Shown: positions 4,328 to 60,654, counted from the first letter of the stretch. The stretch is DNA of 64,000 nt from Acidimicrobiia bacterium (GCA_038144855.1 JAYQOO010000001.1:74931-138930), one strand, 5' to 3'. Notes: generated by a model from the letters alone, not told the origin. Numbers and translations are program-made.

Positions 4328-5737
4328 GTGCGCTTGGCTCCCTCACCAGTCTCAGACATCCACGTAGTCATTCTTGCCGCCGGGAAGGGCACGCGGATGA
4401 AGTCGCAGTTGCCCAAGGTGCTGCACCAGATCGGCGGGCTGACGCTCATCGAGCGCGTGCTTAGAACCGCGTCGGCGCTGTCACCCGCCAGCATCACGAT
4501 GGTCGTCGGCCATGGCGCCGACGAGGTCAAGCAATCCCTCAGCGCGCGGTCGACGCTGCAATTCGTCACCCAGGAACAACAGCTCGGCACCGGCCACGCG
4601 CTATTGCAGACCCGTCAGTTACTCGAAGGCAAGGCCGGCACAGTGGTCCTGCTGTCAGGTGACGTGCCGTTGCTGACCGTGGACTCGCTCGAGGGCATGC
4701 TGGCGACCCACGTGGACGCTGCCGCCGCCGCAACGGTGATGACGGCAATCTTCGCGAGGCCGTTTGGTTATGGTCGCATCGTTCGCAGCAGCGGCCGAAT
4801 TTCGAAAATCGTCGAGGAGCGGGACACGACCGACGCGCAGAAGGCGATCAACGAAATCAATTCCGGCATCTACGCCTTTGATTTGAGCGGCCTGTTTACG
4901 GCGCTGGATTCGATTGGCACCGCCAACAAGCAGGGGGAGTACTACCTGCCCGATCTCGTGGCGATCTATCGCAAGCAGAAGCGAGAGGTCGCCACCTGGA
5001 CGATCTCACGTCCCGACGATATTCGCGGCATCAACAGCCGCACCGAACTCGCAGAGGTTGCCACTATGGTCCGCCAGCAGAAGAACGAAGAGTTGATGGC
5101 CGCGGGCGTTACGCTGATCGATCCCGCCACGACCTACGTCGACGCCGACGTCGTCGTCGGGCCGGATACCGTGATCTACCCCTGCGTGTTTCTTGAAGGC
5201 TCAACCAAGATCGGCGCCGCGTGCGAAATTCACTCTGGCACTCGAATCGTCAACTCGACGATCGGCGATCGTGTGTGTGTCAGAAACCACACTGTGGTCA
5301 CAGACTCCACAGTGGAGGCCGGCGCATTCCTCGGGCCGTTCGCGCACATTCGCCCTGGATCAGCGGTTGGTCCGGACGCCCACATCGGTAACTTTGTCGA
5401 ACTCAAGAAGACGTCGATGGGGAAGGGCGCAAAAGCGAATCACCTCGCCTACCTGGGCGACGCAGTGATTGGCGAGAAGACCAACGTCGGCGCCGGCACC
5501 ATCACCTGTAACTACGACGGAGAGAAGAAACACCAGACAACGATCGGCGCCGGAGTGTTTGTCGGGAGCAATAGCACACTTGTCGCGCCAGTGACGCTGG
5601 CTGATGGCTCGTACATTGCAGCAGGCTCCGCCATTACTTCGGATGTACCGTCCGGTGCTCTCGCTCTTGGCCGTTCGCGCCAGGAGAATAAGGACGGATG
5701 GGTCGCTAAACGGAAGCAGAAGAGAAATAGCCAGTAG
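4328..5737 (+). CDS. glmU: Bifunctional UDP-GlcNAc pyrophosphorylase / GlcN-1-P acetyltransferase
   Basis: [19 protein letters not shown] motif and hexapeptide-repeat C-terminus. Start uncertain (GTG 4328 or TTG 4334). Confidence 0.95.
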
Positions 5738-5805
5738 CCAGACGCCAGGATTACTCTTCTGGCAACTGCGTTTTCTGGATACCGGCTACTGGATACTGGC
5801 TACTG
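5726..5805. repeat. Heptamer-arm hairpin element (AGTAGCC / GGCTACT family), copy between glmU and glmS
   Basis: 5' arm TAGCCAGTAGCCAG and 3' arm CTGGATACCGGCTACTGGATACTGGCTACTG; overlaps the glmU stop. Confidence 0.85.
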
Positions 5806-5808
5806 ACT

Positions 5809-7650
5809 ATGTGCGGAATCGTCGGCTATATCGGACCAAAGCCTGTTGTGCCCGTCCTGATCGATGGGTTGAGACGTCTGGAGTACCGCGGCTATGACTC
5901 AGCCGGCGTTGCGGTCGTCCAGAGCGGCGCCATTGAAATCCGGCGCAGTGCCGGCAAGTTGATCAATCTCGAGAACGCGATCCAGGGCCAGCCGCTTAAC
6001 GGTGCCTATGGGCTTGGGCACACGCGGTGGGCGACTCACGGACGACCAACCGAAGAAAACGCTCACCCGCATCGCGATGGCAGCGGCCGCATTGTCGTGG
6101 TCCACAACGGCATCATCGAGAACTACCTCGAGATCAAGCGCGAGCTGATCGCCGACGGCCACAAGTTCGAATCAGAGACCGACACCGAAGTCGTCGCCCA
6201 TCTGGTCCAGAAGGAGTGGAAGAACGACGGCCTCGAGAAGGCGGTCCAGCGCGCGATGAAACGCGTCCGCGGACTGTTCGCACTCGTGCTGCTCTCTGCT
6301 GATGATCCCAACAAGCTGGTCACGGTTCGCAACGGTCCGCCAATCGTCGTCGGCATCGGCGACGGAGAATACTTCGTCGCCTCGGACGTGCCCGCGATCC
6401 TGAGCCACACCCGCGACGTCGTGTTCCTGGATGACAAGGAGATCGCCGTCCTGACCGAGACGGGTGTGACCTTCTCGACGCTGGACGGCACACCCGTGTC
6501 CCGCAAGCCGACCCGCGTCACATGGGATCCGATTTCAGCCGAGAAGGCCGGCTACAAGCACTTCATGCTCAAGGAAATCTTTGAGCAGCCCTCCGCCGTC
6601 CGCGAGACGGTCCTCGGGCGCGCGTCGCTCGAAACCGGCCAGATCCATCTCAACGAGATGGCCATCTCGGACGCGGATCTCGCCGGCATCGAGAAGATCA
6701 CCATGCTGGCGTGTGGCACTTCGTGGCACGCCGCGCTGGTCGGCAAGTTCATGATCGAAGAGCTGGCCAAGATCCCGGTCGAAGTCGACTACGGCTCTGA
6801 ATACCGCTACCGCGATCCGATCATCAGCAACAAGACGCTCGCCGTCGCCATCACCCAGTCCGGAGAAACGGCCGACACGCTGGCGGCGCTCCGTGAGGCG
6901 AAGGGTAAAGGCGCGCGCAGCCTTGCCGTCTGCAACGTGGTCGGCAGCATGGCCACCCGCGAGGCCGAAGGAACGATCTACACCCATGCGGGGCCGGAGA
7001 TTGGCGTCGCCTCGACCAAGGCGTTCACGACGCAGTTGGTCGCGCTGTATCTGTTCGCGCTCAAGATGGCCGAGGTGCGCGGCACCCTGTCACAGGCCGA
7101 CCGGGTCGACCACATCAAGGCGCTGATGGGCTTGCCGCAGGTCCTGGAAGACACGCTCAAGGTCACCAAGCCGATCGAGGAGATCGCGGCCAGGTTCCAC
7201 AGCCGTTCGGACTTCCTTTACCTGGGCCGCGGCATCAACTATCCGATCGCGCTCGAAGGCGCGCTGAAGCTGAAGGAAATCTCCTACATCCACGCCGAAG
7301 GCTATCCGGCCGGCGAAATGAAACACGGCCCGATCGCGCTGATCGACGAGCAAATGCCGGTGGTCGCGCTCGCGACGCACGATCACGTGTTCGAGAAGAT
7401 GCAGGGCAATATCCAGGAAGCCAAGGCGCGCGGGGGCTCGATCATCGCCATCACCTCGATCGGGGACACCACCCTCAAGGATCTGCTCGGTGAAGGCGAT
7501 CGCCTGATCGCCATTCCAGAGACGCATCGGCTCCTGATGCCGGTCGTGATCTCGCTGCCGCTGCAGTTGTTGTCGTACTACATTGCCGTTCGTCGCGGCT
7601 GTGATGTCGATCAACCGAGGAATCTGGCGAAGTCAGTCACGGTAGAATAG
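5809..7650 (+). CDS. glmS: Glutamine-fructose-6-phosphate aminotransferase
   Basis: MCGIVGY...[18 protein letters not shown]-terminal [15 protein letters not shown]. Confidence 0.98.
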
Positions 7651-7716
7651 TAGCCAGTAGCCGGTAGCCAGCAAAGACAGATGTTCTTCTGGATACTGGC
7701 TACTGACATCTGGCCA
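7649..7716. repeat. Heptamer-arm hairpin element, copy between glmS and pcrA
   Basis: AGTAGCCAGTAGCCGGTAGCCAG-CAAAGACAGATGTTCTT-CTGGATACTGGCTACTG. Confidence 0.85.
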
Positions 7717-7720
7717 CTTC

Positions 7721-10024
7721 ATGGATCTCCTTTCATCCCTTAATCCCGCGCAACAGGAAGCCGTGCGCCAGACAGAAGGTCCCCTTCTGATCCTGGCAGG
7801 AGCGGGATCGGGGAAGACGCGCGTCATCGCGCATCGCATCGCGTATCTCGTCTCCGAGCAGATCGCGAGTCCCGACCAGATCATGGCGGTGACCTTTACC
7901 AACAAGGCCGCCCAGGAAATGCGCGAGCGCGTCGAGAAGATTCTCAACGTCGACTGCCGCGCGATGTGGATCTCCACCTTCCACGCGCTGTGCGCGCGCC
8001 TGTTGCGGCGCGAGTCCCACAACATCGGGCTGAGCCGCGACTTCACGATTTACGACTCCGCCGACCAGCAGTCGGTGATCAAGCAGTTGCTCAAGGAGTA
8101 TCACCTCGCCGACGAGACGTATCAGCCGCGCATGGTTCTCAGCCGCATCAGCGCCGCGAAGAACCGGATGGAGGGTCCGGAAAGCTTCAACAACACCTGG
8201 AACCCGCGCGACAAGGAGATCGGCAAGCTGTACGACGGCTATATCAAGGCGCTCAAGAACGCCAGCGCGCTCGACTTCGACGACCTGCTGCTTGCCACCG
8301 TGGAGCTGTTCAACCAGAATCCTGGCGTCCGCGAGCGCTATGCCCACCGCTTCAAGTACGTGATGGTGGACGAGTATCAGGACACCAACCGGCCGCAGTA
8401 CCTGCTGATTACCCAGATCGCCGGCAAGCACCGCAACCTGGCAGTGGTCGGTGATCCCGACCAGTCGATCTACAAGTGGCGGGGTGCCGACCTGCGCAAC
8501 ATCATGGACTTCGAGTCGGACTTCTCGGATGCGCAGATCGTGCGTCTCGAGCAGAACTACCGGTCGACCGAAGTCATCCTCGATGCGGCCTCGGCGGTCA
8601 TTGCCAACAACAAGAACCGCAAGAAGAAGGAACTCTGGACCGACCTCAAGGGCGGCGCCAAGATCAAGTTGTTCCGAGGCTCCGATGAACTTGAGGAGGC
8701 CGAATACATCACGCGGACTGTCCGAAAGGCCCTCGAGGACGACTACAAGTCACTGACCGCGGTGTTGTATCGCACCAACGCGCAGTCGCGTGCCGTGGAA
8801 GATTCCCTGCGGGCTGCTGGCATTGCCTACGTGATCCTGGGTGGCGTCGGATTCTACGAGCGCCGCGAGGTCAAGGACGCCCTTTCGTATCTGAAGCTGA
8901 TCCTGAATCCGCATGACGACGTCGCTGTTCGCCGGGTGATCAATGTTCCGGCACGAGGCATTGGCAAAGGCGTCATGGATGCGCTCGAGGCGGTCGATGT
9001 CTCGGAGGTCGATCCCAACCTGCTGGCCGGACTGGCGCCGACGGTGTCGCAGAATTCGCTGTGGACGAAGCTGGTGACCGCCGTTGACGGTCGGTGCCTG
9101 AGTTCGAGGCAGGTGGCGTCGCTGGCGGCATTTCGCGACCTGATCACCGGACTTGCCGACGTCGCTCGCCGTGAGCCGGTGTCGATCCTCCTGGGCAAGG
9201 TCCTCGATCAGTCCGGTTACCTGCGTGACCTCCGCGAGGACAGGAGTGAGGAATCGGAAGCCCGCATCGAGAACCTGATGGAACTCGTGTCGGCCGCAAA
9301 CGAGTACGAGTCTCGTGAAGCGGAGCCGTCCCTCGGCGGGTTTGTCGATCGTCTGGCGCTGCTCTCGGACGTGGATAAAGACCAGGGCCAGAAGACTGAG
9401 CCTAAGGTCATGATGATGACCCTGCACTCTGCAAAGGGTCTTGAGTTTCCGACGGTCGTGCTCGCCGGCCTCGAGGAAGGTCTCTTTCCGCATTCGCGAT
9501 CACGGGATGACGAGGCGGAGATGGAGGAAGAACGCCGTCTCTGCTATGTGGGCATCACCCGCGCGCGCAAGCAGCTGGTCCTGACGAGCGCCGCCCGCCG
9601 CCGCGTGTTTGGGGAGTACCAAAACACTGAAGCGTCACGGTTTATCGACGAGATCCCGCCCGATCTGATTGAGCAGGAGTTCCCGGCGACGACGCAGCGC
9701 TACAACAATGGCGGCGGTACCGATTGGAGCTATCGGCCGAATCCGTACGGCCGCGGTGGCGGAAGCAGTAGCGGATACGGCGGCTTCCGGCGTCGCAAAG
9801 AGGAAGACAGCGACGCGAAGGTTCCGACTCAGAATTTCCGCTATGAAGAGGAGGACCAGACGCCGGGTCTGCGTCCAGGAGCGCGTGTGTCGCACGCCCA
9901 GTTCGGACCCGGCACGGTGGTCAGCGTCGAAGATCTCGAGGACGACCAGAAGCTGGTCGTGAAGTTTGCTTCGGTCGGCACGAAGACCCTTCGCGCCAAG
10001 TACGCGAAGCTTACAGCCCGCTAA
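7721..10024 (+). CDS. pcrA: UvrD/PcrA family DNA helicase
   Basis: LAGAGSGKTRV, TFTNKAA, VDEYQDTN, VGDPDQSIY.WRGA, LEQNYRST, TLHSAKGLEF, EEERRLCYVGITRA, plus a C-terminal Tudor-like domain. Confidence 0.95.
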   Translation: MDLLSSLNPAQQEAVRQTEGPLLILAGAGSGKTRVIAHRIAYLVSEQIASPDQIMAVTFTNKAAQEMRERVEKILNVDCRAMWISTFHALCARLLRRESHNIGLSRDFTIYDSADQQSVIKQLLKEYHLADETYQPRMVLSRISAAKNRMEGPESFNNTWNPRDKEIGKLYDGYIKALKNASALDFDDLLLATVELFNQNPGVRERYAHRFKYVMVDEYQDTNRPQYLLITQIAGKHRNLAVVGDPDQSIYKWRGADLRNIMDFESDFSDAQIVRLEQNYRSTEVILDAASAVIANNKNRKKKELWTDLKGGAKIKLFRGSDELEEAEYITRTVRKALEDDYKSLTAVLYRTNAQSRAVEDSLRAAGIAYVILGGVGFYERREVKDALSYLKLILNPHDDVAVRRVINVPARGIGKGVMDALEAVDVSEVDPNLLAGLAPTVSQNSLWTKLVTAVDGRCLSSRQVASLAAFRDLITGLADVARREPVSILLGKVLDQSGYLRDLREDRSEESEARIENLMELVSAANEYESREAEPSLGGFVDRLALLSDVDKDQGQKTEPKVMMMTLHSAKGLEFPTVVLAGLEEGLFPHSRSRDDEAEMEEERRLCYVGITRARKQLVLTSAARRRVFGEYQNTEASRFIDEIPPDLIEQEFPATTQRYNNGGGTDWSYRPNPYGRGGGSSSGYGGFRRRKEEDSDAKVPTQNFRYEEEDQTPGLRPGARVSHAQFGPGTVVSVEDLEDDQKLVVKFASVGTKTLRAKYAKLTAR

Positions 10025-10709: not shown

Positions 10710-13228
10710 TGGTTTTCTCTCTCAGTTGGAGGCGCTTCAGTCACGGGGGCTTCGGCGGCCGGCGGAGCTTCCTCAACTGCAGCTTCCACGAGCGCCACCG
10801 ACACGATCTTGTCCTCGCCATCGAGGTCCATCAACCGGACGCCCTGAGTAGCGCGGCCGACGGTGCGGATCTCGTTGGCGGGCGTGCGCAGGATTTTGCC
10901 CTGCTCCGTCATCACCAGCAACTCTTCGTTGGCGTGAATCTGGGCAATGGCGACGACCTGGCCGTTCTTCTCGGTCACTTCGACGTTCTTGACGCCGAGG
11001 CCGCCGCGGCCGGTCACGCGATACTCGTCGAGCAGCGTGTTCTTGGCGTAACCCTTCTCGGTCACGGTCAACAACATGCCGCCGGGCTTGGCCACCTGCA
11101 TCGCCACGACTTCGTCGTTCTCGCGCAACTGGATGCCGCGCACGCCATAGGCGGTGCGGCCCATCGAGCGGACGTCTTCTTCGCCGAAACGGATCGCTTT
11201 GCCGTCGCGGGTGCCGATCAGGATCTCGCTCTGGCCGTCGGAGAGTTGGACGTCGATGACCGCGTCGCCCTCCTCGATGCCCATGGCGATGATGCCGCCG
11301 GCGCGTGGATTCGAGAACGCGGAGAGCTCGGTCTTCTTGATCGTGCCGCGACGGGTGCCCATGACGATGAAGCGCTGGTCGTCGAACTCCTGCACCGCCA
11401 GCATGGCCGCCAGCTTCTCGCCGGACTCCATCTGCACGAGGTTGGCGATCGACTTGCCCTTGCCGTCGGCGCCGACGTCGGGAATCTCGTGCACCTTCAG
11501 CCAGTACGCACGGCCGCGATCCGAGAAGATCATCATGTACGAGTGCGTCGACGCCACGAACAGGTGGTTGACGACGTCCTCCTCTCGCGTGCGCATGCCG
11601 ATGCGGCCCTTGCCGCCGCGGTTCTGCGTGCGATACGTGGTGATCGGCGTGCGCTTGATGTAGCCGGTGTCGGTGACCGTCACCGCGACGTCTTCCTCGG
11701 TGATCAGGTCCTCGATGCTGAAGTCGCCTTCCTCGTCGATCAACTGCGTGCGACGCGGATCGGCAAATTTCTCCTTAATGTTCTTCAGCTCGTCGACGAT
11801 GATCTGCAGCAGCTTCTTCTGGTCGGCGAGGATCCCGCGAAGGTGCGTGATTAACGCGGTCAGCTCCGCCAGCTCGTCGAGGATCTTCTGCCGTTCCAGG
11901 CCGGTGAGGCGCTGGAGCTGCATGTCGAGAATCGCCTGCGCCTGGATGTCGCTGAGGCCGAAGTTGCCCGTCAGCCCGGCCTTGGCTTCCGGCGGGGTCT
12001 TCGATGCACGAATCAACTTGATGACGGCGTCGAGGTTATCGAGCGCGATCCGCAGACCTTCGAGAATGTGCGCGCGCGCCTCGGCCTTCCGCAGTTCGAA
12101 CTCGATGCGCCGGCGCACAACGTCGCGCCGGAAGTCGACGAAGTTCTCGATGACCTCGAGCAGGCTCAGCACCTTCGGACGGCCGCCGACGATCGCCAGC
12201 GTGATGATGCCGAACGACTGCTGCAGCTGGGTGTGCTTGTAGAGGTTGTTGAGGATGACCTCCGCCACCTCACCGCGCTTCAGCTCGATGACGATCCGCA
12301 TGCCCGAACGATCGGACTCGTCGCGGAGATCGGAAATCCCTTCGATCGTCTTCTCGCGCACCAGTTCGGCAATTCGCTCGAGCAGGCGCGCCTTGTTCAC
12401 CTGGTAGGGGATCTCGGTGACGATGATCTGTTCGCGGTCGCCCTTGCGCGTGGTTTCGACTTCGGCCTTGGCGCGGACCTGGATCGAGCCGCGGCCGCTG
12501 ACATAGGCCTCGTGAATGCCGCGTCGGCCGACGATCATCCCGCCAGTCGGGAAATCCGGACCGGGCACGAGACGAATCAATTCCTTGAGCTTGGCTTCGC
12601 GGCTCAACCCGCCGCCGTCGCCCATCAGCGTCGTCTCGATGAACCAGATCACGCCGTCCACGACCTCGCAGAGGTTGTGGGGCGGGATATTCGTGGCCAT
12701 GCCGACCGCAATGCCGGTCGATCCGTTGACCAACAGGTTGGGGTATGGCGCCGGCAGCACCGTGGGCTCGGTGGTGGTCTCGTCGAAGTTCGGCTGGAAG
12801 TCGACAGTGTCCTTGTCGAGATCCGCCATGAGGCTCTCGGCAAGCGCCTCGAGCCTGGCTTCCGTGTATCGATACGCAGCCGGTGGATCGCCGTCGACCG
12901 AGCCGAAGTTACCCTGGCCGTCGACCAGGGTCTGGCGCATGTTGAAGTCCTGCGCGAGACGGACGAGCGTGTCGTAGGCGGGCGCGTCGCCGTGCGGGTG
13001 GTAGTTACCGATGACTTCGCCGACGATCTTCGCGCACTTGCGATACGCGCGATTCGACGCGAGACCCATCTGGCGCATCGCATACAGCACGCGTCGATGC
13101 GCAGGCTTCAAGCCGTCGCGGACGTCTGGCAGCGCACGACCAATGATCACGCTCATCGCGTAATCGAGGTACGAGCGCTTCATCTCGTCTTCGATATTTA
13201 CCGGCGTACGATTTACGTTTACATCCAT
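10706..13228 (-). CDS. gyrA: DNA gyrase subunit A
   Basis: SYLDYAMSVI..RALPDVRDGLKP, catalytic AAYRYTE, GyrA-box QNRGGKG, acidic tail. Confidence 0.98.
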   Translation of the reverse strand: MDVNVNRTPVNIEDEMKRSYLDYAMSVIIGRALPDVRDGLKPAHRRVLYAMRQMGLASNRAYRKCAKIVGEVIGNYHPHGDAPAYDTLVRLAQDFNMRQTLVDGQGNFGSVDGDPPAAYRYTEARLEALAESLMADLDKDTVDFQPNFDETTTEPTVLPAPYPNLLVNGSTGIAVGMATNIPPHNLCEVVDGVIWFIETTLMGDGGGLSREAKLKELIRLVPGPDFPTGGMIVGRRGIHEAYVSGRGSIQVRAKAEVETTRKGDREQIIVTEIPYQVNKARLLERIAELVREKTIEGISDLRDESDRSGMRIVIELKRGEVAEVILNNLYKHTQLQQSFGIITLAIVGGRPKVLSLLEVIENFVDFRRDVVRRRIEFELRKAEARAHILEGLRIALDNLDAVIKLIRASKTPPEAKAGLTGNFGLSDIQAQAILDMQLQRLTGLERQKILDELAELTALITHLRGILADQKKLLQIIVDELKNIKEKFADPRRTQLIDEEGDFSIEDLITEEDVAVTVTDTGYIKRTPITTYRTQNRGGKGRIGMRTREEDVVNHLFVASTHSYMMIFSDRGRAYWLKVHEIPDVGADGKGKSIANLVQMESGEKLAAMLAVQEFDDQRFIVMGTRRGTIKKTELSAFSNPRAGGIIAMGIEEGDAVIDVQLSDGQSEILIGTRDGKAIRFGEEDVRSMGRTAYGVRGIQLRENDEVVAMQVAKPGGMLLTVTEKGYAKNTLLDEYRVTGRGGLGVKNVEVTEKNGQVVAIAQIHANEELLVMTEQGKILRTPANEIRTVGRATQGVRLMDLDGEDKIVSVALVEAAVEEAPPAAEAPVTEAPPTERENQ

Positions 13229-13313
13229 TCAGTCGCCAGTAGCCGGTAGCCAGCAGCCAGACCGGAAAGACACATGCCTTTCTGGATACCGGCTACTGGA
13301 TACTGGCTACTCA
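13229..13313. repeat. Heptamer-arm hairpin element, copy between gyrB and gyrA
   Basis: CAGTAGCCGGTAGCCAGCAGCCAG...GGAAAGACACATGCCTTTCTGG-ATACCGGCTACTGGATACTGGCTACT; fills the whole intergenic gap. Confidence 0.85.
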
Positions 13314-15848
<2,535 letters not shown>

Positions 15849-21355: not shown

Positions 21356-21799
21356 ATGGCTACAGCAGACATCACCACCTTCGTCCAGAAAATCGTCGAC
21401 GCGATGGACCTCGATCTCGAGGCCAGCGCCGAGGAGATGCCCGATGGCCTCCGCATCAACCTGACTGGCGAGGATGGCAACGTCCTGATCCGCCGCCAGG
21501 GCGAGGCCCTCGCCGCGCTCCAGCACATTGTCGCGGCCGCCTACCGCAGCGAGTCGACCGAAGGCCGCCGCCTCGTTGTTGATTGCATGGGCTATCGCAA
21601 GGGCAAGGACGACGAGCTGCGCCAGATGGCGCTGTTTCTCGGCGGCAAGGCCAAGGACACCGGCCTCGCTCAGGAAATCGGTCCGCTGAACCCGTACGAG
21701 CGCCGCATCGTGCACCTGGCAATCGCCGAGATCGAATCGGTGACGTCGGAGAGCATCGGCGACGCGTTCGAGAAGACGGTCATTATTTCCGTGAAATAG
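21356..21799 (+). CDS. jag: Jag/KhpB-like RNA-binding protein (KH + R3H, no Jag_N domain)
   Basis: LIRRQGEALAALQH and PLNPYERRIVHLAI (R3H); conserved position after yidC. Confidence 0.85.
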   Translation: MATADITTFVQKIVDAMDLDLEASAEEMPDGLRINLTGEDGNVLIRRQGEALAALQHIVAAAYRSESTEGRRLVVDCMGYRKGKDDELRQMALFLGGKAKDTGLAQEIGPLNPYERRIVHLAIAEIESVTSESIGDAFEKTVIISVK

Positions 21800-21870
21800 C
21801 GAGTAGCCAGTAGCCGGTAGCCAGAGAAAACCGTCTTTCTGGATACTGGCTACTGGATACTGGCTACCTG
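21797..21870. repeat. Heptamer-arm hairpin element between jag and mnmE
   Basis: AGTAGCCAGTAGCCGGTAGCCAGAGAAAACCGTCTTTCTGGATACTGGCTACTGGATACTGGCTAC, then CTG ATG. Confidence 0.85.
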
Positions 21871-27058: not shown

Positions 27059-27097
27059 CAGGCGAACAGGCGAACAGGAGAACAGGCCGACAGGAAA
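27059..27097 (+). repeat. Octamer tandem repeat between parA and parB
   Basis: CAGGCGAA CAGGCGAA CAGGAGAA CAGGCCGA CAGGAAA, then TACGTC ATG. Confidence 0.85.
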
Positions 27098-27103: not shown

Positions 27104-28003
27104 ATGGAAAAGAGACCAGCACTTGGCAAGGGATTGAGCGCGCTCATTCCCGACGCCGCCGACACGCTCACTGCGCCGGCGCGCGCATCGCTTGAGGTCG
27201 ACGTCGACCAACTCGAGCCGAACCACTACCAGCCGCGTGGACCGATCGACGCCGGAAAGCTTGAAGAACTCTCGCGGTCAATCAAGGCCAATGGCGTGAT
27301 TCAACCGATCGTCGTGCGCCGTATGGACGCGGCTGTTAGCGGCGGCCGCGAGCGCTACCAGATCATTGCCGGTGAACGCCGCTGGCGTGCCGCCCAGCTC
27401 GCCCAGCTCGCCAAGGTGCCGATCGTCGTCAAGGACGTACCGCCCGCGGAAAAGAAGCGGCTCCTCGAGATGGCGCTGATCGAGAACATCCAGCGCGAAG
27501 ATCTCAACCCAATGGAATCGGCTGCCGCTTATCAGCGGCTCGTCGACGAGTTTCAACTAAAGCAGGACGACATCGCCGTCCAGGTCGGCAAGGACCGCGC
27601 GACGGTGGCCAACTACCTCCGCCTGCTCAAGCTCCCAGAGGAAGTGCGTGGCAACGTCGCCTCGGGCGCATTGTCGATGGGCCATGCGCGCGCGATCGTC
27701 GCCCTGCCGTCGGACGTCGACCAGAAGCGCCTCGCGCGCGATGTGGTGGCGCGAGGGCTCTCCGTTCGCGAAACCGAAGCGCTCCTCAAGAAAGAGATTG
27801 GCACCAAGCCGGGCGAAGCCAGGCCGGAGCCGATGAAGCCCAAGAAGGACGTGCACACCCGCGCTGCGGAAGATCAGCTGCGCATGTCGCTTGGCACGCC
27901 GGTCGAGATCAAGCGCAAAGGCAAGGGCGGCACGATCGCTATCGCCTTCAACAACGAAACGGAACTCCAGCGCCTCTACGAGTATCTAACGGAGAAGAAG
28001 TAG
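27104..28003 (+). CDS. parB: Chromosome partitioning protein
   Basis: GVIQPIVVR, IIAGERRWRAAQ, LIENIQREDLNP, HTH region. Confidence 0.97.
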   Translation: MEKRPALGKGLSALIPDAADTLTAPARASLEVDVDQLEPNHYQPRGPIDAGKLEELSRSIKANGVIQPIVVRRMDAAVSGGRERYQIIAGERRWRAAQLAQLAKVPIVVKDVPPAEKKRLLEMALIENIQREDLNPMESAAAYQRLVDEFQLKQDDIAVQVGKDRATVANYLRLLKLPEEVRGNVASGALSMGHARAIVALPSDVDQKRLARDVVARGLSVRETEALLKKEIGTKPGEARPEPMKPKKDVHTRAAEDQLRMSLGTPVEIKRKGKGGTIAIAFNNETELQRLYEYLTEKK

Positions 28004-28027
28004 CAAGAAGCAGGTATCAAGAACACG

Positions 28028-32355: not shown

Positions 32356-34766
<2,411 letters not shown>

Positions 34767-35976: not shown

Positions 35977-37359
35977 GTGACTCCCGCAATTGACGTCGTC
36001 AACGTCTCCAAGGTCTATCGCCGCTACCAGCAGAAGAAACAGTTTGCGACGCTGAAGTCGGCGATCCTCAGCGGCACGCTGATCGGCGATCTCAAGCCTG
36101 ACGAAACATTCCAGGCGCTGCGCGGTGTCTCTCTCTCCGTGCCGAAAGGCTGCACCTACGGTGTCATCGGTCGCAACGGATCCGGCAAGAGCACGCTGCT
36201 GAAGTGCGTTGCCGGCATCACCAGGCCGACCACGGGAACCGTGACCGTGGACGGGCGCATCTCGGCCCTGATTGAGCTGGGTGCCGGCTTCCACCCGGAG
36301 ATCTCTGGCCGCGAGAACATCTTCATCAATGGCGTCATGCTGGGGCTCACCAAGAAAGAGATCCAGTACCGCTTCGACGAGATTGTCGAGTTCGCGGAGA
36401 TGCAGGAGTTCATTGACGCGCCGGTCAAGACGTATTCATCCGGCATGTACATGCGTCTTGGCTTTGCCGTGGCGGTGCACGTTGACCCGGAAGTGTTGCT
36501 CGTCGACGAGGTGCTGGCGGTCGGCGACCAGGGCTTTACCCACAAGTGCCTGGACAAGTTTGCCGAGTTCCGCCGGCGCAACAAGTCGATCCTGCTGGTG
36601 ACGCACTCCCTCGACCTGGTCGAGAAGTTCTGCGACACGGCGCACTGGCTCGATCACGGCGTCAGCAGGGGCGAAGGCGATCCCAAGCGCATTGTCGCCG
36701 CCTACATCATCAACGTTGAGGACTCGGAAGAAAACGAACTGGCGAAGGCCGAAGCCGCGAGAGTTGCGGCTGCGGCGAAAGCCGTCTCGACGCCGGACCC
36801 GGTTGAGGGTGTTGAGCCGAAAGCCGAGAGCGGACAGTCGCCCGCCGAAAGCGGCGAGGGTCCGGCGCCTGCCGAACCCGAAGGTCCAAAGGACGGGTTC
36901 AAATCCGACGAAGGACGTTGGGGCACCCGCGAGATCGAGATCACCAACGTTACGATCAGCGGTCCCGACGGCGAAGCCGGTCACGTGTTTCAGAGCGGCG
37001 ACTCCATCAAAGTCCGCATGGATGTGACGTCGAAGGACACGATCACCGACTTCGTGTTCGGCCTTGGCCTGTTCAACGCCGACAACGTCTGCGTCTACGG
37101 CACGAACACCAACCTCGAAGAGTTCCGGCCGACGGAGATCAACGGCGCGGGTAGCGTCACCTTCACGATCGACAAACTCGATTTGGTTGAGGGCACCTAC
37201 CGCCTGGATCTGGCCGCGCACAAGGCCGATGGCTATCCCTACGACTACCATCGCCTGCTCTACACGTTTCGTGTGAAGTCACGGATCCGGGACGTCGGGA
37301 TCTACCGCCCGGATCACTCCTGGTCGTTCAGCGGCGGGATCAAAATCAGTAGCCAGTAG
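35977..37359 (+). CDS. wzt: Wzt-type ABC ATPase with C-terminal carbohydrate-binding domain
   Basis: GRNGSGKSTLL, ALIELGAGFHPEISGRENI, YSSGMYMRLGFA, DEVLAVGD, Wzt_C-like C-terminus. Confidence 0.92.
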   Translation: MTPAIDVVNVSKVYRRYQQKKQFATLKSAILSGTLIGDLKPDETFQALRGVSLSVPKGCTYGVIGRNGSGKSTLLKCVAGITRPTTGTVTVDGRISALIELGAGFHPEISGRENIFINGVMLGLTKKEIQYRFDEIVEFAEMQEFIDAPVKTYSSGMYMRLGFAVAVHVDPEVLLVDEVLAVGDQGFTHKCLDKFAEFRRRNKSILLVTHSLDLVEKFCDTAHWLDHGVSRGEGDPKRIVAAYIINVEDSEENELAKAEAARVAAAAKAVSTPDPVEGVEPKAESGQSPAESGEGPAPAEPEGPKDGFKSDEGRWGTREIEITNVTISGPDGEAGHVFQSGDSIKVRMDVTSKDTITDFVFGLGLFNADNVCVYGTNTNLEEFRPTEINGAGSVTFTIDKLDLVEGTYRLDLAAHKADGYPYDYHRLLYTFRVKSRIRDVGIYRPDHSWSFSGGIKISSQ

Positions 37360-37396
37360 CCAGTAGCCAGTAGCCAGTAGCCAGATGCCGGATAGC
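37347..37396 (+). repeat. Heptamer tandem (CAGTAGC x5) carrying the wzt stop and leading into the rfaE2 start
   Basis: Five exact CAGTAGC units 37347-37381, then CAG ATG CCG GAT AGC. Confidence 0.9.
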
Positions 37397-42612: not shown

Positions 42613-43110
42613 ATGGATCCTCACTGGTTTGCCATCTGGACGCGCTCGCGTCACGAAAAGATCGTTCGCGACCAGTTGGCGAAGAAGTCCAACGTCGACG
42701 TCTTTCTCCCGACCATCTGCAAGTGGAGCCGCTGGAAGGATCGCAAGAAGAAGATCGACTGGCCGCTGTTTCCCGGCTACGTGTTTGCGCGATTTGTGCC
42801 GGATGACCGCATTGGCGTGTTGAAGGTCGACGGCGTCGTGCAGATCATCAGCAACAACGGCATCCTGTCGCCGATTCCCGATGAGGAGATCGACAGCATT
42901 CGCCTGCTGGTGGAAAGCGAGTTGGCCTACGATCCGGTGCCGCTCATCAAGGAAGGCGACATGGTGAAGGTCACCTCAGGTCCGCTGAAGGGCGTCGCCG
43001 GCCGTTTGATACAGAAGAAGGGCGCCGCCGCGCGCCTCGTATTGTCAGTAGATTTGATTGGACAAGCGGTGTCGGTGGAAGTAGATGCTGCCGACGTGAA
43101 GCCCTATTAG
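42613..43110 (+). CDS. NusG paralogue (UpxY/RfaH/LoaP-like antiterminator)
   Basis: WFAIWTRSRHEK, WKDRKKKIDWPLFPGYVF, KOW motif GDMVKVTSGPLKG. Confidence 0.88.
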   Translation: MDPHWFAIWTRSRHEKIVRDQLAKKSNVDVFLPTICKWSRWKDRKKKIDWPLFPGYVFARFVPDDRIGVLKVDGVVQIISNNGILSPIPDEEIDSIRLLVESELAYDPVPLIKEGDMVKVTSGPLKGVAGRLIQKKGAAARLVLSVDLIGQAVSVEVDAADVKPY

Positions 43111-43184
43111 TAACCAGATGCCAGTAGCCAGTATCCAGAAAGACAAGTGTTCTTCTGGCTACCGGCTACTGGATACTGGCTACT
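43108..43184. repeat. Heptamer-arm hairpin element between the NusG paralogue and dusB
   Basis: CCAGTAGCCAGTATCCAGAAAGACAAGTGTTCTTCTGGCTACCGGCTACTGGATACTGGCTACT. Confidence 0.88.
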
Positions 43185-43196: not shown

Positions 43197-44264
43197 ATGA
43201 AGATCGGATCCATCGAACTCGCCTCGCCCTTCGTCGTCTCGCCCATGGCGGGCATGACCGACACAGCGTTTCGCCGCCTGGTCAAACGCCAGGGCGGCTG
43301 CGGGCTCGTCGTGTCTGAGATGGTCAGCAGCGAAGGCCTGGTGCGCGGCATTGACCGTACGCTCGAGTACGCCGAGTACACCGAAGAAGAACGTCCAGTC
43401 TCCATCCAGATCTTCGGCGGCGAGCCGGCCAAGATGGCCGAAGCCGCGCGCGTCGTCGAACAGACGGGCGCCAACATTGTCGACGTCAACATGGGCTGTC
43501 CGGTGCCGAAGATCGCCAAGCACAACGCCGGCTGCAGCCTGATGCGCGAACCGGCGCACGCCGCCGAGATCATTTCGGCGATGTCGAAGGCGGTGAAGAT
43601 TCCCGTCACCGTGAAGATGCGCAAGGGATGGGACGAAGGCGAAATGAACGCCGGCGAGCTCGCCAGGCGCGTCGAGGACGCAGGCGCGAAGGCGATCGCG
43701 ATTCACGGCCGGACCGCAAAGCAGAGCTACAGCGGCGTTGCTGACTGGGACTTTGTGTCCGAGATTGCGGAGACCGTTTCGATTCCGGTGTTTGGATCCG
43801 GAGACTGCGTCGAGCCCGAAGACATCGTCACGAGGATGAAGTCGGGCGTCAGCGGCGTCTACGTCGGCCGCGGAGTGCTGAGGAATCCATGGATCCTCGC
43901 GCAGGCACGCGATCTGATGGAGGGCCGTCAGGCTCGCGTCATCTCGCACGAGGAGCGCGGCCAGTTCTTGTTGGATTACATGAATCTGTTGCTCACCGAG
44001 AGCGCAGATGAAGCCGAGGGCTTTCGGCACAAGGCCAACGGGCGAACAGGCGAACAGGCGAACGGCGTTGCCGTCGGCCGCGAGCGGTGGGTCATAAACA
44101 AGATTCGCGCGCTCTGCAGCTGGTACACCAAGGGCTTCGAAGGCGGCGCGCAGTTTCGAATTGGCGTGAACACCACGAAGTCGATTCCCGAGCTGAAAGA
44201 TTTGATCGAGAGATTCTTTCTTCTGACTCCCGCGGCGTCCGGCTTGAGCCGGACTGACGTATGA
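43197..44264 (+). CDS. dusB: tRNA-dihydrouridine synthase
   Basis: [46 protein letters not shown]. Confidence 0.9.
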
Positions 44265-48412: not shown

Positions 48413-48420
48413 CATCCGCG

Positions 48421-52673: not shown

Positions 52674-52688
52674 GTTAGGGCAGGCAAC

Positions 52689-55135: not shown

Positions 55136-55167
55136 TCGTTCGGCGAACGTTCAGCTGCCGTTCTTCG

Positions 55168-55725: not shown

Positions 55726-55783
55726 AGGGGGACACTTTAGCAGCTAGTGAGCTAACTGGCCAGCTGGTGTCCAGCGGTGGGCT

Positions 55784-55914: not shown

Positions 55915-55995
55915 GTCGCGGCCGAATTTCCGACACGCGCCTAGTTCAACCTTCGCGACTCTTCGCCGATTACGAACCCAACAGGGGTTCGTAAC

Positions 55996-56505: not shown

Positions 56506-56525
56506 AGCGGACCGCCGCCGCCGTT

Positions 56526-57407
56526 CTATCGGCGCCCGACGATCCAAGTACCAGCAAAGACCAATGCCGCTGCGACGAGGATGCGCGCTGAAAGGGGTTC
56601 GTTCAACAGCAGCGTGCCGAGCGCTACCGCAATCATCGGGTTAATGTAGGCGTAAAGCGAGACGAGTGGCAGCGGCAGGTGCTGGATCGCATAGATGTAG
56701 GCCGAGTACGCGACAAGCGAGCCGGCGATGCTCAAATACAACATGGCGCTGATCGTGCGCGGCGTGAACGACAACTGCACCCAGTCGCCATGCGCGGTCG
56801 CCGCCGTTAGCAGCATTGTGCCGCTGAACACCATTTGCAACGCGGCCGAGCGGAACGGGTTATCGCCAAGCTCGTGCCGCTTGGCGAAGGATGTGCCGAT
56901 CACCCACCCGACGCACGCCAACTGGATGGCAATGACGCCGCCTACAAACGCCGCCCCCTCAGCCCCGCCATGCGTCATCTCCGGCCACACCAGCACTACG
57001 ATGCCGCCGAAGCCAAGCGCGAGGCCGAAAAGTGAACGCCTGGTGAAGCGCTCACCGTTCGGCAGCAATCGCTCGACCAGCGCTGACCAGAACGGCGTGG
57101 TGGCGATCAGGACGGCCGTGAGCCCGCTTGCCACGAGCTGTTGCGCGTAGACCACGAAGCCGTTGCCGACGATATTCATCAGGAAGCCGAGCAGCGCAAG
57201 CGGTCCCCAGAATCGCGGCTTCGGCAGGCCGCGTCCGGTGGCCAGCATCGCGACTGACATCACCACACCGGCAAACATCCAGCGGAGGCCGGCCACGAGC
57301 AGTACAGGCACCGTCTCGAGCGCCACACTGATGGCAAGGTAGGTCGTGCCCCAGATGACGCAGACGGTGAAAAACGCGAGATAGGCGAGTGATGGAGGCG
57401 AGGCCAT
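56526..57407 (-). CDS. EamA/DMT family transporter
   Basis: VCVIWGTTY, two EamA repeats, YAYINPMIAV.LG.LLLNEP. Confidence 0.92.
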   Translation of the reverse strand: MASPPSLAYLAFFTVCVIWGTTYLAISVALETVPVLLVAGLRWMFAGVVMSVAMLATGRGLPKPRFWGPLALLGFLMNIVGNGFVVYAQQLVASGLTAVLIATTPFWSALVERLLPNGERFTRRSLFGLALGFGGIVVLVWPEMTHGGAEGAAFVGGVIAIQLACVGWVIGTSFAKRHELGDNPFRSAALQMVFSGTMLLTAATAHGDWVQLSFTPRTISAMLYLSIAGSLVAYSAYIYAIQHLPLPLVSLYAYINPMIAVALGTLLLNEPLSARILVAAALVFAGTWIVGRR

Positions 57408-57906
57408 CTACTTCGCGCCGGCCTGGACCGTCAGTTCCTTCGGAATCGCGATGCGTGGGTCCTCCTTGACGGTTTCAAGCACGATCGTCGTCCTGGTGGA
57501 GATCACCGACGGTGCGGCCGCGATCTGCTGCCGCAGGATCTGGCCCAGATGCTCGGCGTCACGCGCCCGGACCTTCAGCAGGTAGCAGTCATCCCCGGCG
57601 ACGTGGTGCACTTCCAGGACTTCGGGAATGCGTGACATCATCGTAGGCCGAGGGCATCTCCGGACCGTGCTCCGACGTTCGAACGGAGACAAACGCCAGC
57701 ATGGCCCGTTCAACGACGTGAGGGTCGATTAGCGCGACGTAATCCTTGATAATGCCCCTGGCTTCGAGCTTGCGAAGACGTTCGAGCACGGCTGAGGGCG
57801 CGAGCCCGACAGCCTTGGCAAGCTCGGCCTGGGTTGTTCTCGCGTTGTACTGAAGAATATCCAGTATTGAGCCGTCGATTTCGTCGATCGTTCGCTCGTT
57901 AGCCAT
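57408..57906 (-). pseudogene. Lrp/AsnC family regulator with a frameshift near 57640-57665
   Basis: N-half IDEIDGSILDILQYNARTTQAELAKAVGLAPSAVLERLRKLE; C-half in another frame IPEVLEVHHVAGDDCYLLKV...TRTTIVLETVKE. Confidence 0.85.
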
Positions 57907-57920
57907 TTGGACAGAATTAT

Positions 57921-59147
57921 ATGACTTTTTGGCGTGAGGCCTCACCAGAGGCGAAGAGGGCGCTTGTCGCTGCATCCCTGGGATGGCTGCTCGACGCCTT
58001 TGACGTGATGCTCTATGCCCTCATCCTGACCGCGGTGATCGCGGATCTGGGGATCGACCGGGCGACAGGCGGAATGATGGCATCGCTCACCCTGGGCGCC
58101 TCAGCGCTCGGCGGGCTGATCTTCGGGGTCATTGCCGACAAGCTCGGCCGGACTCGTGCGCTCTCGCTCAGCATCCTGCTCTATTCAGTGTTCACGTTCG
58201 CGTGTGGCCTCGCGCAGAACGTATGGCAGTTCGCGATCTTCCGCGTGCTCCTTGGCCTGGGGATGGGCGGCGAGTGGGCGAGCGGCGCGACGCTGATCAG
58301 CGAGACGTGGCCAGAGAAGCACAGAGGCAAGGCGATGGGCATCATGCAGAGTTGCTGGGCCATCGGCTACGGCATCGCCGCGGTGGTCGTGGCCATCGTG
58401 CTGCCGCGATTCGGTTGGCGGGCGGTGTTCTTTGTTGGCGTCCTGCCGGCGATCTTCACGCTGTGGATCCGGCGAAGCGTGAAAGAGCCAGAGATGTGGG
58501 TGAGTGCGCGGGGTGCGAAACGTGCGAAGGCTGCAGAAGGTGCGACAGGTGCGCGGGGTGCGCGCTTCCCGCTTCGTATCGCGCTGTTTCTCACCACGAT
58601 GAACGCCGCCACGATGTTTGCGTGGTGGGGGCTGAACCTCTGGGTGCCGTCCTACCTGTCGTTGCCGACGACGCAGGGAGGCATTGGCCTGTCGACCGAG
58701 ACGATGTCGTTGTTTATCGTCGCCATGCAGGTTGGAATGTGGCTGGGGTACGTCACATTCGGCTTCATCAGTGACTCCCTGGGGCGTCGTCCGACCTACG
58801 TGGGGTACTTGCTGATCGCATCCGGGCTCGTCTGGTATTACGGCTTCGCTCGGGAGCCGTGGGTGCTGCTGGTGCTTGGTCCTTTTGTCGCCTTCTTCGG
58901 AACCGGCTACTTCAGCGGCTTCGGCGCGGTGGCATCGGAACTGTTCCCGACCTCCATTCGCGCCACCGCCCTTGGGGTCACCTACAACAGCGGACGATTG
59001 CTGAGCGCGGTTGCGCCGTTTGTGGTGGGCACCATGGCGCAGAACCGTGGCTTCGGTGCGGCGTTCACGCTCACGGCGATCGCTTTTGTGATCGCGGCGG
59101 TGTTGTGGGTCGGGATTCCAGAGACGAAGGGAAGCAATATGACGTGA
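57921..59147 (+). CDS. MFS transporter (aromatic acid/sialate-like)
   Basis: GWLLDAFD, GVIADKLGR motif A, GLGMGGEW, ELFPTSIRATA. Confidence 0.93.
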   Translation: MTFWREASPEAKRALVAASLGWLLDAFDVMLYALILTAVIADLGIDRATGGMMASLTLGASALGGLIFGVIADKLGRTRALSLSILLYSVFTFACGLAQNVWQFAIFRVLLGLGMGGEWASGATLISETWPEKHRGKAMGIMQSCWAIGYGIAAVVVAIVLPRFGWRAVFFVGVLPAIFTLWIRRSVKEPEMWVSARGAKRAKAAEGATGARGARFPLRIALFLTTMNAATMFAWWGLNLWVPSYLSLPTTQGGIGLSTETMSLFIVAMQVGMWLGYVTFGFISDSLGRRPTYVGYLLIASGLVWYYGFAREPWVLLVLGPFVAFFGTGYFSGFGAVASELFPTSIRATALGVTYNSGRLLSAVAPFVVGTMAQNRGFGAAFTLTAIAFVIAAVLWVGIPETKGSNMT

Positions 59148-59223
59148 CTGTCCGCCTAAGGCGGACGCCGCAGTAGTGGATATGACGCGGCTGATGCCAA
59201 AACAATCCCTGCGGCATCCGGCT

Positions 59224-60192
59224 TTAGCCGGATTGTCCCTTGTAGAGAACTCGTCCCAGCCGCTTATTCCACGCCGTGAATTCGTCGTCCGACGGATCTT
59301 CGGCGATCGCCTTCCTGACCTGATTCAGCTTTGCATCCAGTTCATCGACCGAGGCCAGGATAAAAGCCTCGATCGACTTCGGTTCAACAGGTGAACCGTG
59401 CTCGCGGATGCCGTGGTGCGAGGCAACCATGTGTTCGATCTGCGCGCGGAGGTCGTGAGGAAAGCCGCTGATGCCGTTGCACGCCTCACGCACCATCATC
59501 ATGCCGATGGCGATGTGGCCCACCATGTTGCCGTCGCGCGTGTAGCTTGTGGCGCCGCCGTCGTAGGCGAGCTCGTGGAGCTTGCCGATGTCGTGCAGGA
59601 TCACGCCTGCGAGGACAAGGTCCTCGTCGGCGCCATACGAACGCGCGAGGTAGCGACCGACCTCGGCCATCTTCGTGATGTGCTCGAGGAATCCACCCCG
59701 ATAGGCGTGATGGATCTGCTGCGCGGCCGGCCAGATCCTGAGTTGCTCCGCATTGTCCGAGACCACGCGATTCAGCAGCACGCGGATGTGGTCGTTCTTG
59801 ATGCCGCGAAGGTGGCCCTGCAGCTCTTCCCACATCTCGTCGATCGGACGTGGTGCACTGAGCACGCAGTCCTCTTCGCGGAAACCCTGCAGGCGATCTT
59901 GCTCCGGGCTCACGCGCCGGATGCTCGAGAGCACAAGTTGCGTCTGACCGTTGTAAATGCTGCCGCGCCCCTCGACGCGCACGTACTCGCCGGCGTCGAA
60001 TTCGTTCTTGTAGCGCTCGACGTCGTGCATCAACTTCGCGACGATCTGCGCGGATGCATCCTGCAGCGACAAGAAAAGAAACTCTCCGCCGCTGCGGCCG
60101 GTACGCACCTCGCGATAGGTGCAGAGGAAGTAGCCCCAGCCCTCGTCGGTCTCGGTCAGCGACGCGAGCTTCGGAAGTTTATTCGGAGCCAA
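59224..60192 (-). CDS. OB-fold + HD-domain 3'-5' exoribonuclease, YhaM-like
   Basis: LSLQDAS (OB), HHAYRGGFLEH, LHDIGK, MVGHI, SHHG, DELDAK. Confidence 0.88.
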   Translation of the reverse strand: MAPNKLPKLASLTETDEGWGYFLCTYREVRTGRSGGEFLFLSLQDASAQIVAKLMHDVERYKNEFDAGEYVRVEGRGSIYNGQTQLVLSSIRRVSPEQDRLQGFREEDCVLSAPRPIDEMWEELQGHLRGIKNDHIRVLLNRVVSDNAEQLRIWPAAQQIHHAYRGGFLEHITKMAEVGRYLARSYGADEDLVLAGVILHDIGKLHELAYDGGATSYTRDGNMVGHIAIGMMMVREACNGISGFPHDLRAQIEHMVASHHGIREHGSPVEPKSIEAFILASVDELDAKLNQVRKAIAEDPSDDEFTAWNKRLGRVLYKGQSG

Positions 60193-60622
60193 GGGCGAAC
60201 GTCATTGTGCCGTGTGCGACCGCTCTACCGTTCACCGTGGCCAGGCCTTCGAGCACACCCATGCGGCTGCGGAGACGTTTGACGAAGGCCTCAATCACCA
60301 CCACATCGCCGGCGTAGACCGGCGCGCGGAAACGGACCCGTTCCATGCCCCGGAAGAAGATCAGCTGGTTCTTGTTCTCGGGCTTGGCGAGGATCAGGAT
60401 GGCGCCGACCTGCGCGACGGCTTCGGTCAGGATCGTTGGCGGCAGCGACACCCGCCCATTCACCGGGCGCGACAGGTACGGCTCGGTGCTAGCGACGTTC
60501 TTGACGCCCACAATCCGCTTGTCCGGCACAAATTCGGTGATCCGGTCCACGAGCAGGAAGGGGTAGCGATGCGGAAGAATCCGTTCGATTGCCGAGTAGT
60601 CGAGCGGAAGTGTCAGATCCAT
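60179..60622 (-). CDS. fabZ: 3-hydroxyacyl-ACP dehydratase
   Basis: ILPHRYPFLLVDRI, EAVAQ, RFRAPV..GD. Confidence 0.85.
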   Translation of the reverse strand: MDLTLPLDYSAIERILPHRYPFLLVDRITEFVPDKRIVGVKNVASTEPYLSRPVNGRVSLPPTILTEAVAQVGAILILAKPENKNQLIFFRGMERVRFRAPVYAGDVVVIEAFVKRLRSRMGVLEGLATVNGRAVAHGTMTFALGSE

Positions 60623-60623
60623 T

Positions 60624-60654
60624 CAGTAGCCAGTATCCAGTAGCCGGTAGCCAG
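60624..60654 (-). repeat. Heptamer tandem half-element directly upstream of the fabZ ATG
   Basis: Minus strand CTGGCTACCGGCTACTGGATACTGGCTACTG A ATG. Confidence 0.85.

Follow-up and report, generated by a model that had tools for sequence, protein, structure and literature searches.

AGTAGCC-arm hairpins at core-operon junctions of an Acidimicrobiia bacterium and a candidate full-length cassette encoding an intervening-sequence protein

What are the short hairpins with heptamer-built arms that sit at the gene junctions of core operons in an Acidimicrobiia bacterium, and what gave rise to so many of them? The question is posed by a 64-kb stretch of DNA (hereafter, the window) from the assembly G000 (4.25 Mb, 64% GC, 224 contigs), in which tandem AGTAGCC units are followed by a loop and then by tandem units of the reverse complement. 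A first-pass annotation of the window had suggested, among other readings, a non-autonomous mobile element targeting gene junctions, and had seen no mobilising gene. The evidence presented here favours such an element, with a partner gene elsewhere in the genome: the hairpins are probably the gene-less, non-autonomous members of a repeat family, a REPIN/RAYT-like population, whose full-length form is a cassette carrying a gene for a PF05635/TIGR02436 four-helix-bundle (‘23S rRNA intervening-sequence’) protein, hereafter referred to as IVP. Tandem heptamer repeats have been catalogued for decades (the cyanobacterial short tandemly repeated repetitive (STRR) sequences, the 2007 survey of long simple sequence repeats (LSSRs) and the TAACTGA repeats of Beggiatoa), and intervening sequences (IVSs) of rRNA that bear an open reading frame (ORF) have been known since the 1990s; we know of no accepted origin or function for either. 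For the heptamer repeats of bacteria, which have long lacked an explanation, the cassette link suggests an origin that can be tested.

A PF05635 profile search of G000 gave two matches, one of them intact. The intact IVP gene (C13:44195-44545) encodes 116 residues (PF05635 E = 1.3e-37; TIGR02436 132 bits). Homologues in the PDB are 2GSC and 2RLD, both of them five-chain depositions. Terminal inverted repeats surround the gene and pair into a long stem (Table 1). Its left flank reads (AGTAGCC)4-CCAGAAAA and its right flank CCTTTCTGG-(GGCTACY)4, with four units per arm, and the inner stem (CCAGAAA/TTTCTGG) has CCAGAA/TTCTGG in common with the gene-less hairpins. The complete order is (AGTAGCC)n, CCAGAA, a leader of ~110 nt, the 116-aa IVP gene, TTCTGG and (GGCTACY)n; judged by these shared parts, the cassette appears to be the full-length version of the window hairpins. 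The first-pass annotation had proposed looking for a four-helix-bundle/IVS-type gene flanked by the repeat, and the only intact PF05635 gene in the genome indeed sits in the loop of an AGTAGCC-arm hairpin, outside the window, in keeping with the absence of a mobilising gene within it. The second match (C61, ~6230-6560) is an internally deleted remnant flanked by arrays of an 8-mer, CAGGCGAA, that belongs to a second family. In a word census of G000, ~98 of the 191 period-7 arrays belong to AGTAGCC and ~31 of the 75 period-8 arrays to the second-family 8-mer AACAGGCG/C; the arms of the two IVP loci therefore carry the most abundant words of their periods.

The same correspondence was found among relatives, which we ranked by identity of GlmS to that of G000 (G043, 93%, the closest; G007 and G020, 90%; G011, 87%; G012, 85%). 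Each genome has one such cassette, and its arm word is that of the dominant hairpin population. Counting exact two-unit matches on both strands, the genomes with AGTAGCC cassette arms gave 144 AGTAGCC and 8 AGTAGCA hits (G000), 115 and 0 (G012), and 10 and 0 (G011); those with AGTAGCA arms gave 18 AGTAGCC and 88 AGTAGCA hits (G043), and 6 and 81 (G007). In seven genomes that lack this IVP clade, and so have no cassette word, the counts were 0-15 and 0-1. The cassette locus is syntenic in G000, G043, G007 and G011 and lies at a different place in G012. Identity to the IVP of G000 is 65-66% for the AGTAGCC-type proteins of G011 and G012, which are the more distant genomes, but only 55-59% for the AGTAGCA-type proteins of closer relatives. 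The interior of the G011 cassette (L125, C4:819926-823246, compared with G000:C13:42001-47000) has the opposite orientation to that of both flanks, the outcome that recombination between inverted arms would produce.

Sister species differ by the gain, loss and replacement of whole hairpins. In 74 kb of synteny and 20 further G043 loci, a position in G000 could be assigned to 17 AGTAGCA sites of G043; G000 has an AGTAGCC hairpin at 10 of them, an A-type array at 5 (several decayed) and another element at 2. This co-occupancy (10/17) compares with ~3% by random placement (p ~1e-11). Because the glmS-pcrA junction is empty in other genus members that have active families, inheritance of occupied sites from a common ancestor is more probable than a universal hot spot; most members have a 6-nt spacer there that bears a Shine-Dalgarno (SD) sequence. 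Comparison of orthologous junctions, which the first-pass annotation had recommended, thus revealed both presence/absence and word differences (Table 1), which, like the unit-number polymorphism among strains and the loop subfamilies described below, fit a repeat family in turnover. Arrays of the non-resident word decay reciprocally, at 28001 in G000 and at 60624 in G043, and in the glmU-glmS spacer the heptamer word changes with almost every species of the genus. Arrays within the 160 nt upstream of glmS (L135-L155) include AACTGTT, AAGGCTA, CAACCGT, CAACTTT, GGTTACA, GTGAAAA, GAAGTGA and others, some as hairpins and some in one direction. With one syntenic cassette per genome and a gene-less population carrying its word, these species constitute a natural experiment that links heptamer repeats and IVSs: at shared junctions, the words of sister species are one base apart, and two proteins that are 55% identical are available for comparison.

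The association of IVP genes with tandem words extends well beyond AGTAGCC. Our survey comprised 78 IVP loci from 41 genomes of the order and six distant taxa. A flanking array of 6-9-nt units, almost always of period 7 or 8, is present at 60 of the 78 loci; arrays lie on both sides at 35, and in 28 of these 35 they are inverted copies of one word. The words are diverse (AGTAGCC, AGTAGCA, GAGTGAC, CTAGGAA, CAGGCCT, CCCCAAG, AATAGGCC and others) and follow the protein: the same-word fraction is 56% at IVP identities of at least 70%, 30% at 60-70%, 12% at 50-60% and 1% at 40-50%. In a maximum-likelihood tree of IVPs, eight word groups need 10 changes, compared with 23.3 when the labels are shuffled (0/200 as low), and the AGTAGCC/AGTAGCA proteins of the genus form one clade (support 98/93). 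One PF05635 clade from seven genomes (L132, L133, L183, L178, L212, L177 and L196) has no flanking arrays and very short branches, and may be a domesticated or differently embedded paralogue. A three-unit AGTAGCC scan of 185,579 species genomes found at least 116 loci; among the matches listed are hairpins with facing arms in Acidobacteriota (including metagenome-assembled genomes (MAGs) of Vicinamibacterales), Thermomicrobiales and Acidimicrobiia, as well as arrays running in a single direction in many low-GC taxa. The AGTAGCC-flanked IVP genes of L033 (a Desulfobacca MAG) and L012 (Chloroflexi) appear to be disrupted, with an open frame of 83 aa compared with a tblastn alignment of ~110 aa.

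Several observations weigh against deriving the hairpins from an IVP cassette. G011 has few hits despite its cassette, and two genomes without this IVP clade (G010 and G019) have 12-15 AGTAGCC hits. The AGTAGCC-flanked IVPs of Terriglobales, Korobacteraceae, Bryobacterales and one Bacteroidota MAG fall outside the genus clade (approximately unbiased (AU) test, p = 0.006). This rules out one protein lineage per word across phyla, and AGTAGCC is therefore not tied to a single protein lineage. The covariation of protein and word, together with the matching words, is equally expected from co-inheritance of a linked cassette and its descendants. In filled-versus-empty comparisons (atpD-atpC and glmS-pcrA) there is no target-site duplication of the kind left by a MITE (miniature inverted-repeat transposable element), and the spacer is replaced, not interrupted. 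IVP has no known catalytic motif, and no transposase, reverse transcriptase (RT) or associated Y1 gene accounts for insertion. At shared junctions, the similarity of the loops does not exceed that of random pairs (p = 0.51). There are two exceptions with related loops, one of which keeps a single fossil AGTAGCA unit, and only C1:147704 and the 17208 copy look orthologous throughout. We rejected in-place, unit-by-unit conversion of the word because orthologous loops are no closer than random; whole-element replacement is therefore the more likely general mode.

The hairpins themselves form a coherent population. We refer to the AGTAGCC direction as F and the GGCTACT direction as R, an F-loop-R element being FR and an R-loop-F element RF. 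The ~102 AGTAGCC clusters of G000 comprise 44 FR, 27 F-only and 26 R-only clusters and no RF cluster, and 155 real AGTAGCC arrays compare with 38 arrays of a reversed-unit control. Arms are built from AGTAGCC and the recurrent variants GGTAGCC, AGTATCC and AGATGCC. The first-pass annotation had described a shared core and read it as a sign of common ancestry. Across the genome, the conserved part is the inner stem, CCAGAA...TTCTGG; the loop is variable, and the AAGACAAGTGTTCTTCT core defines a single subfamily of ~7 copies, so the argument from the core applies within that subfamily and not beyond it. Loops do form subfamilies, with 13 pairs at an identity of at least 0.8 compared with 3.05 for shuffled interiors, and whole hairpins have therefore been copied.

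In the window, the two-unit pattern AGTAGCCNGTAGCC, with at most one mismatch, has 33 matches, compared with 0.01 expected from dinucleotide-preserving shuffles, and Tandem Repeats Finder (TRF) reports period-7 arrays at every site listed by the first-pass annotation. Nine of its ten copies are AGTAGCC-arm hairpins or half-hairpins, as judged by sequence, TRF and shuffles. The tenth (28001), described as a weak variant, is instead a decayed AGTAGCA array. Full hairpins number seven (5726, 7649, 13229, 17208, 21797, 34689 and 43108), with RNA folds of -30.7 to -47.3 kcal/mol (z -4.1 to -9.1; 0/200 shuffles equal), and two are one-armed (37347 and 60624), so half-elements exist, as had been noted. 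Pfam bears out the core-operon names given to the neighbouring genes (glmU, glmS, pcrA/uvrD, gyrB, gyrA, dnaA, dnaN, yidC, jag, mnmE, atpD and atpC). An Rfam scan of the 64-kb window gave no match at the gathering score. At the 37347 copy, a split bifunctional hldE was considered and rejected, because the upstream ORF is a Wzt-type ABC ATPase and the downstream one a cytidylyltransferase. The variant unit AGATGCC (GGCATCT on the opposite arm), which provides the cytidylyltransferase start codon there, recurs in many arms genome-wide. Two arrays of the second family also lie in the window (27059 and 44032); the words at their orthologous sites in G043 differ (CAGGCYAG and GGGAGCC).

Table 1 Repeat elements and related genes. 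Positions without a contig name are those of the window; contig positions are those of G000.
Feature	Position	Strand	Details	Orthologous site in G043
AGTAGCC-arm cassette around intact IVP gene, full length	C13:44059-44583			
AGTAGCC-arm hairpin, glmU/glmS	5726-5805		glmU TAG 5735-5737 within left arm; glmS ATG 5809; -30.7 kcal/mol, z -4.1	30-nt unrelated spacer only
AGTAGCC-arm hairpin, glmS/pcrA	7649-7716		glmS stop 7648-7650; pcrA ATG 7721	AGTAGCA hairpin, same layout as in G000 (3F+loop+4R)
AGTAGCC-arm hairpin, gyrB stop/gyrA start	13229-13313		operon on minus strand; -47.3 kcal/mol, z -6.1	8-mer GCTRGCCY array
AGTAGCC-arm hairpin, dnaA stop/dnaN	17208-17289		genes on minus strand; adjoins origin region; from Pfam and fold	AGTAGCA hairpin, similar loop
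AGTAGCC-arm hairpin, jag (KH/R3H) stop/mnmE ATG	21797-21870		ATG 21871, 2 nt past arm; -45.1 kcal/mol, z -9.1	GAGAAGT-word hairpin
AGTAGCC-arm hairpin, atpD/atpC	34689-34766		element gives atpD TAG stop; atpC ATG 34776; left arm partly degenerate	empty, 2-nt gap
Half-element, (AGTAGCC)5 plus variant units AGATGCC and GGATAGCC	37347-37396	+	wzt-type ABC ATPase stop to cytidylyltransferase ATG 37385, within variant unit	(AGTAGCC)2 plus (AGGAATC)3
AGTAGCC-arm hairpin, NusG-family gene/dus	43108-43184		-40.6 kcal/mol, z -7.0; loop of AAGACAAGTGTTCTTCT subfamily	unrelated GC hairpin
Half-element, four units	60624-60654	+	abuts start codon of minus-strand FabA-like gene; divergent spacer	array with two extra substitutions
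Decayed AGTAGCA array (sister word)	28001-28025	+	directly 3' of parB stop	clean (AGTAGCA)4 array
Second-family 8-mer CAGGCGAA array	27059-27095	+	just 5' of parB ATG, ending 8 nt before start	
Second-family 8-mer CAGGCGAA array	44032-44067	+	inside 3' tail of dus ORF	
PF01797 (Y1) gene	C11:27181-27522			
PF01797 (Y1) gene	C21:2473-2763			

The order of events could be the reverse of the one that we favour, with hairpins arising first and the IVP gene entering their loops secondarily as homing cargo, so that the gene-less copies would not derive from the cassette. Published IVSs do sit in 23S rRNA, at helix tips, with a 28-bp stem as their border (PMC4990558); IVP genes lie between AGTAGCC arms in at least three separate lineages; and many low-GC taxa have single-direction AGTAGCC arrays with no IVP gene nearby. 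However, the cassette is single-copy and syntenic in four species, and is not scattered over the ~100 loops available to it. The C61 remnant, still flanked by arrays, represents decay from cassette towards hairpin, and the population word follows the cassette word. We consider this order of events unlikely, although it is the strongest of the rival explanations.

Somewhat less likely still is that the hairpins are cis-acting RNA signals of operons under host selection (RNase III sites, mRNA stabilisers or translational couplers), to which the IVP link would be incidental. This explanation draws on where the elements lie. With crude gene calls based on GC content at third codon positions (3,223 ORFs, covering 89.5% of G000), 84 elements were placed in 51 tandem, 19 convergent and 5 divergent spacers, at 6 extreme ORF ends and at 3 contig edges; divergent promoter spacers are depleted (5/75 copies compared with a background of 17%, p = 0.007). 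Stop-to-start spacers are filled: in the 51 tandem contexts, the upstream stop codon is inside the element in 26, and the next start codon is at most 12 nt from it in 24. The SD-bearing spacer is often replaced, the hairpin ending 1-4 nt before the ATG of glmS, gyrA and mnmE, and, with a 16-nt tail, before that of pcrA. At empty glmS-pcrA junctions (L136-L155), pcrA starts with TTG, 5-6 nt past the glmS stop and after a GGAG-like spacer; in G000 (window 7651-7720) and G043 the hairpin stands in place of that spacer and the start is ATG. Heptamer arrays of Beggiatoaceae that end 1 nt before start codons have likewise been proposed to be regulator sites (PMC4679880).

The elements are transcribed within operons, without strong terminator action, because contigs of four freshwater/aquatic metatranscriptomes run from atpD through the hairpin into atpC, although such contigs may contain DNA. 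Among 27 full hairpins lying within operons, RNA of the sense strand is the more stably folded in 20 and that of the antisense in 6 (Wilcoxon p = 0.004), a bias that could also stem from transcription-linked C-to-T mutation. This strand preference and the co-transcription speak for an RNA signal; together with the placement of the elements, they also accord with our own explanation. A conserved regulatory role is, by contrast, hard to reconcile with 19 of 75 copies lying between convergent genes and with the existence of one-armed copies. The same junction is empty, or holds another word or an unrelated hairpin, in sister species, and unit number differs among strains. The systematic flanking of IVP genes by arrays would also be left unexplained.

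We regard it as improbable that the elements are ordinary heptamer LSSRs, as defined by Mrazek et al. (2007), which polymerase slippage would generate by itself, without a dedicated protein. Heptamers are the commonest class of long simple sequence repeat in many prokaryotes (PMC4679880, summarising Mrazek et al. 2007), and indels of exactly 7 nt do occur among strains of the present species: a unit is deleted at 5800 in metagenome X14, and an extra AGTAGCC unit is present at 7648 in metagenomes X4, X9 and X14 but not in X8. The variation in arm unit number noted in the first-pass annotation is therefore borne out. Length polymorphism of the slippage type is thus found in tandem short units, as in LSSRs, but the LSSR category fits the arms alone, and neither the hairpin architecture nor the cassette link. 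Slippage cannot give one word at ~100 loci, always as F-loop-R and never as R-loop-F, with a shared inner stem, and it explains neither the loop subfamilies nor the agreement of genome-specific words with the arms of whichever IVP cassette is resident.

A repetitive extragenic palindromic (REP)/REPIN family mobilised by a RAYT (Y1 HUH transposase) is very improbable and was rejected: the word does contain GTAG, the conserved head of RAYT-associated REPs, and G000 has two PF01797 genes (Table 1), but the arms consist of tandem arrays and not of one imperfect palindrome, neither gene has a word array within 1.5 kb (isolated hexamers only; nearest elements more than 10 kb away), and PF01797 occurs in 20 of 25 relatives irrespective of the word, which just two of the first 41 genomes have in abundance. 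With no RAYT association and no Rfam match in the window, the family has not turned out to be a described REP or MITE family, a match that the first-pass annotation had named as a refutation. No insertion sequence carrying these element ends was seen. The RT that it had named, alongside RAYT, as a potential repeat-flanked partner was not found either; a search for PF00078 gave no RT in G000 and seven relatives. Avd, the accessory protein of diversity-generating retroelements (DGRs), is a nucleic-acid-binding four-helix-bundle protein, basic and pentameric. IVP has a homologous fold but scores 35.3 bits against the Avd equivalog NF033474, below its cut-off of 80, and there is no pair of template and variable repeats here. 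Retro-copying of the RT/DGR type was accordingly rejected.

How, then, might an IVP cassette give rise to a population of hairpins? An IVP oligomer may recognise the tandem word in nucleic acid that is single-stranded or folded into a hairpin, which would bias the copying, expansion or retention of matching arrays. IVP would act as RAYT does for REPINs, minus a recognisable nuclease or RT. Because there is no RT, no associated Y1 transposase and no target-site duplication, the chemistry would fall to host replication or repair, by slippage and by template switching at hairpins. AGTAGCC contains TAG, and three units give a stop in every frame, which may be why the hairpins are tolerated in mRNA. 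Their long stems in mRNA are probably RNase III substrates, by analogy with the stems of rRNA IVSs. More generally, we tentatively suggest, as a possibility clearly short of even odds, that PF05635/TIGR02436 proteins are sequence-specific readers of tandem 7-8-nt words, and that each lineage maintains and propagates a hairpin population through host replication or repair, with neither transposase nor RT. If so, they would constitute a new class of protein-guided selfish repeat system, which would explain the scattered heptamer repeats (LSSR, STRR and TAACTGA) and the origin of rRNA IVSs. A literature search, in which full-text coverage was incomplete, found no description of IVP genes flanked by word arrays outside rRNA.

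By its parts, the closest match to the family is the ORF-bearing 23S rRNA IVS; by its behaviour, it is the REPIN-RAYT pair. The IVSs of Coxiella burnetii and Leptospira with an S23p/IVP ORF likewise have PF05635 in the loop of a long stem of terminal inverted repeats and are, as here, transcribed within a host RNA (PMC4990558). Their stems are cut by RNase III, and their authors suspected a mobile element whose ORF aids mobility, the function of the protein and the mechanism of mobility being unknown (PMC4990558). The present elements differ in that all copies examined lie in mRNA spacers between protein genes; rRNA was sought in the G000 assembly for IVS copies and none was found. Their arms are tandem 7-nt words of variable number, a feature not described for IVS arms (PMC4990558). 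Here ~100 gene-less copies accompany one gene-bearing copy, an arrangement not described for IVSs, and the word differs between species and tracks the protein. As in REPIN-RAYT systems (PMC3116915, PMC3333891), a single-copy, vertically inherited gene is flanked by the repeat, and ~100 short, palindromic, non-autonomous extragenic copies show a bias towards 3' ends of genes and a lineage-specific sequence. Here, however, the partner lacks HUH/Y1 motifs and is no transposase but a four-helix bundle of 116 aa, and tandem arrays take the place of one imperfect palindrome.

Heptamer LSSRs, cyanobacterial STRRs and the TAACTGA repeats of Beggiatoaceae, as presented in PMC4679880, are also tandem 7-nt units that are mostly intergenic, often end a few nucleotides from a start codon with no ribosome-binding site, differ between strains by 7-nt-step indels and have a sporadic phylogenetic distribution. 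The TAACTGA repeats pose the same translation puzzle as hairpins that replace SD spacers (PMC4679880). In that paper, the published repeats are direct repeats for which no partner gene is described, with one inverted case among 170 in BOGUAY, whereas here mirror-image arrays make up hairpins that have a link to an IVP cassette. For annotation, the elements matter in that they supply stop codons, remove SD spacers before the essential genes pcrA, gyrA, glmS and mnmE, and break short-read assemblies.

The species is widespread, being found in estuary, lake and drinking-water metagenomes. A joint that skips 13227-13316 (gyrB-gyrA) in two metagenomes could correspond to an empty or differently filled site and was not used. 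All four metagenome strains differ from the window by in-frame length polymorphisms of essential genes, namely a 27-nt insertion in gyrB at 13599, in two sequence variants, and a 9-nt insertion in pcrA at 9018.

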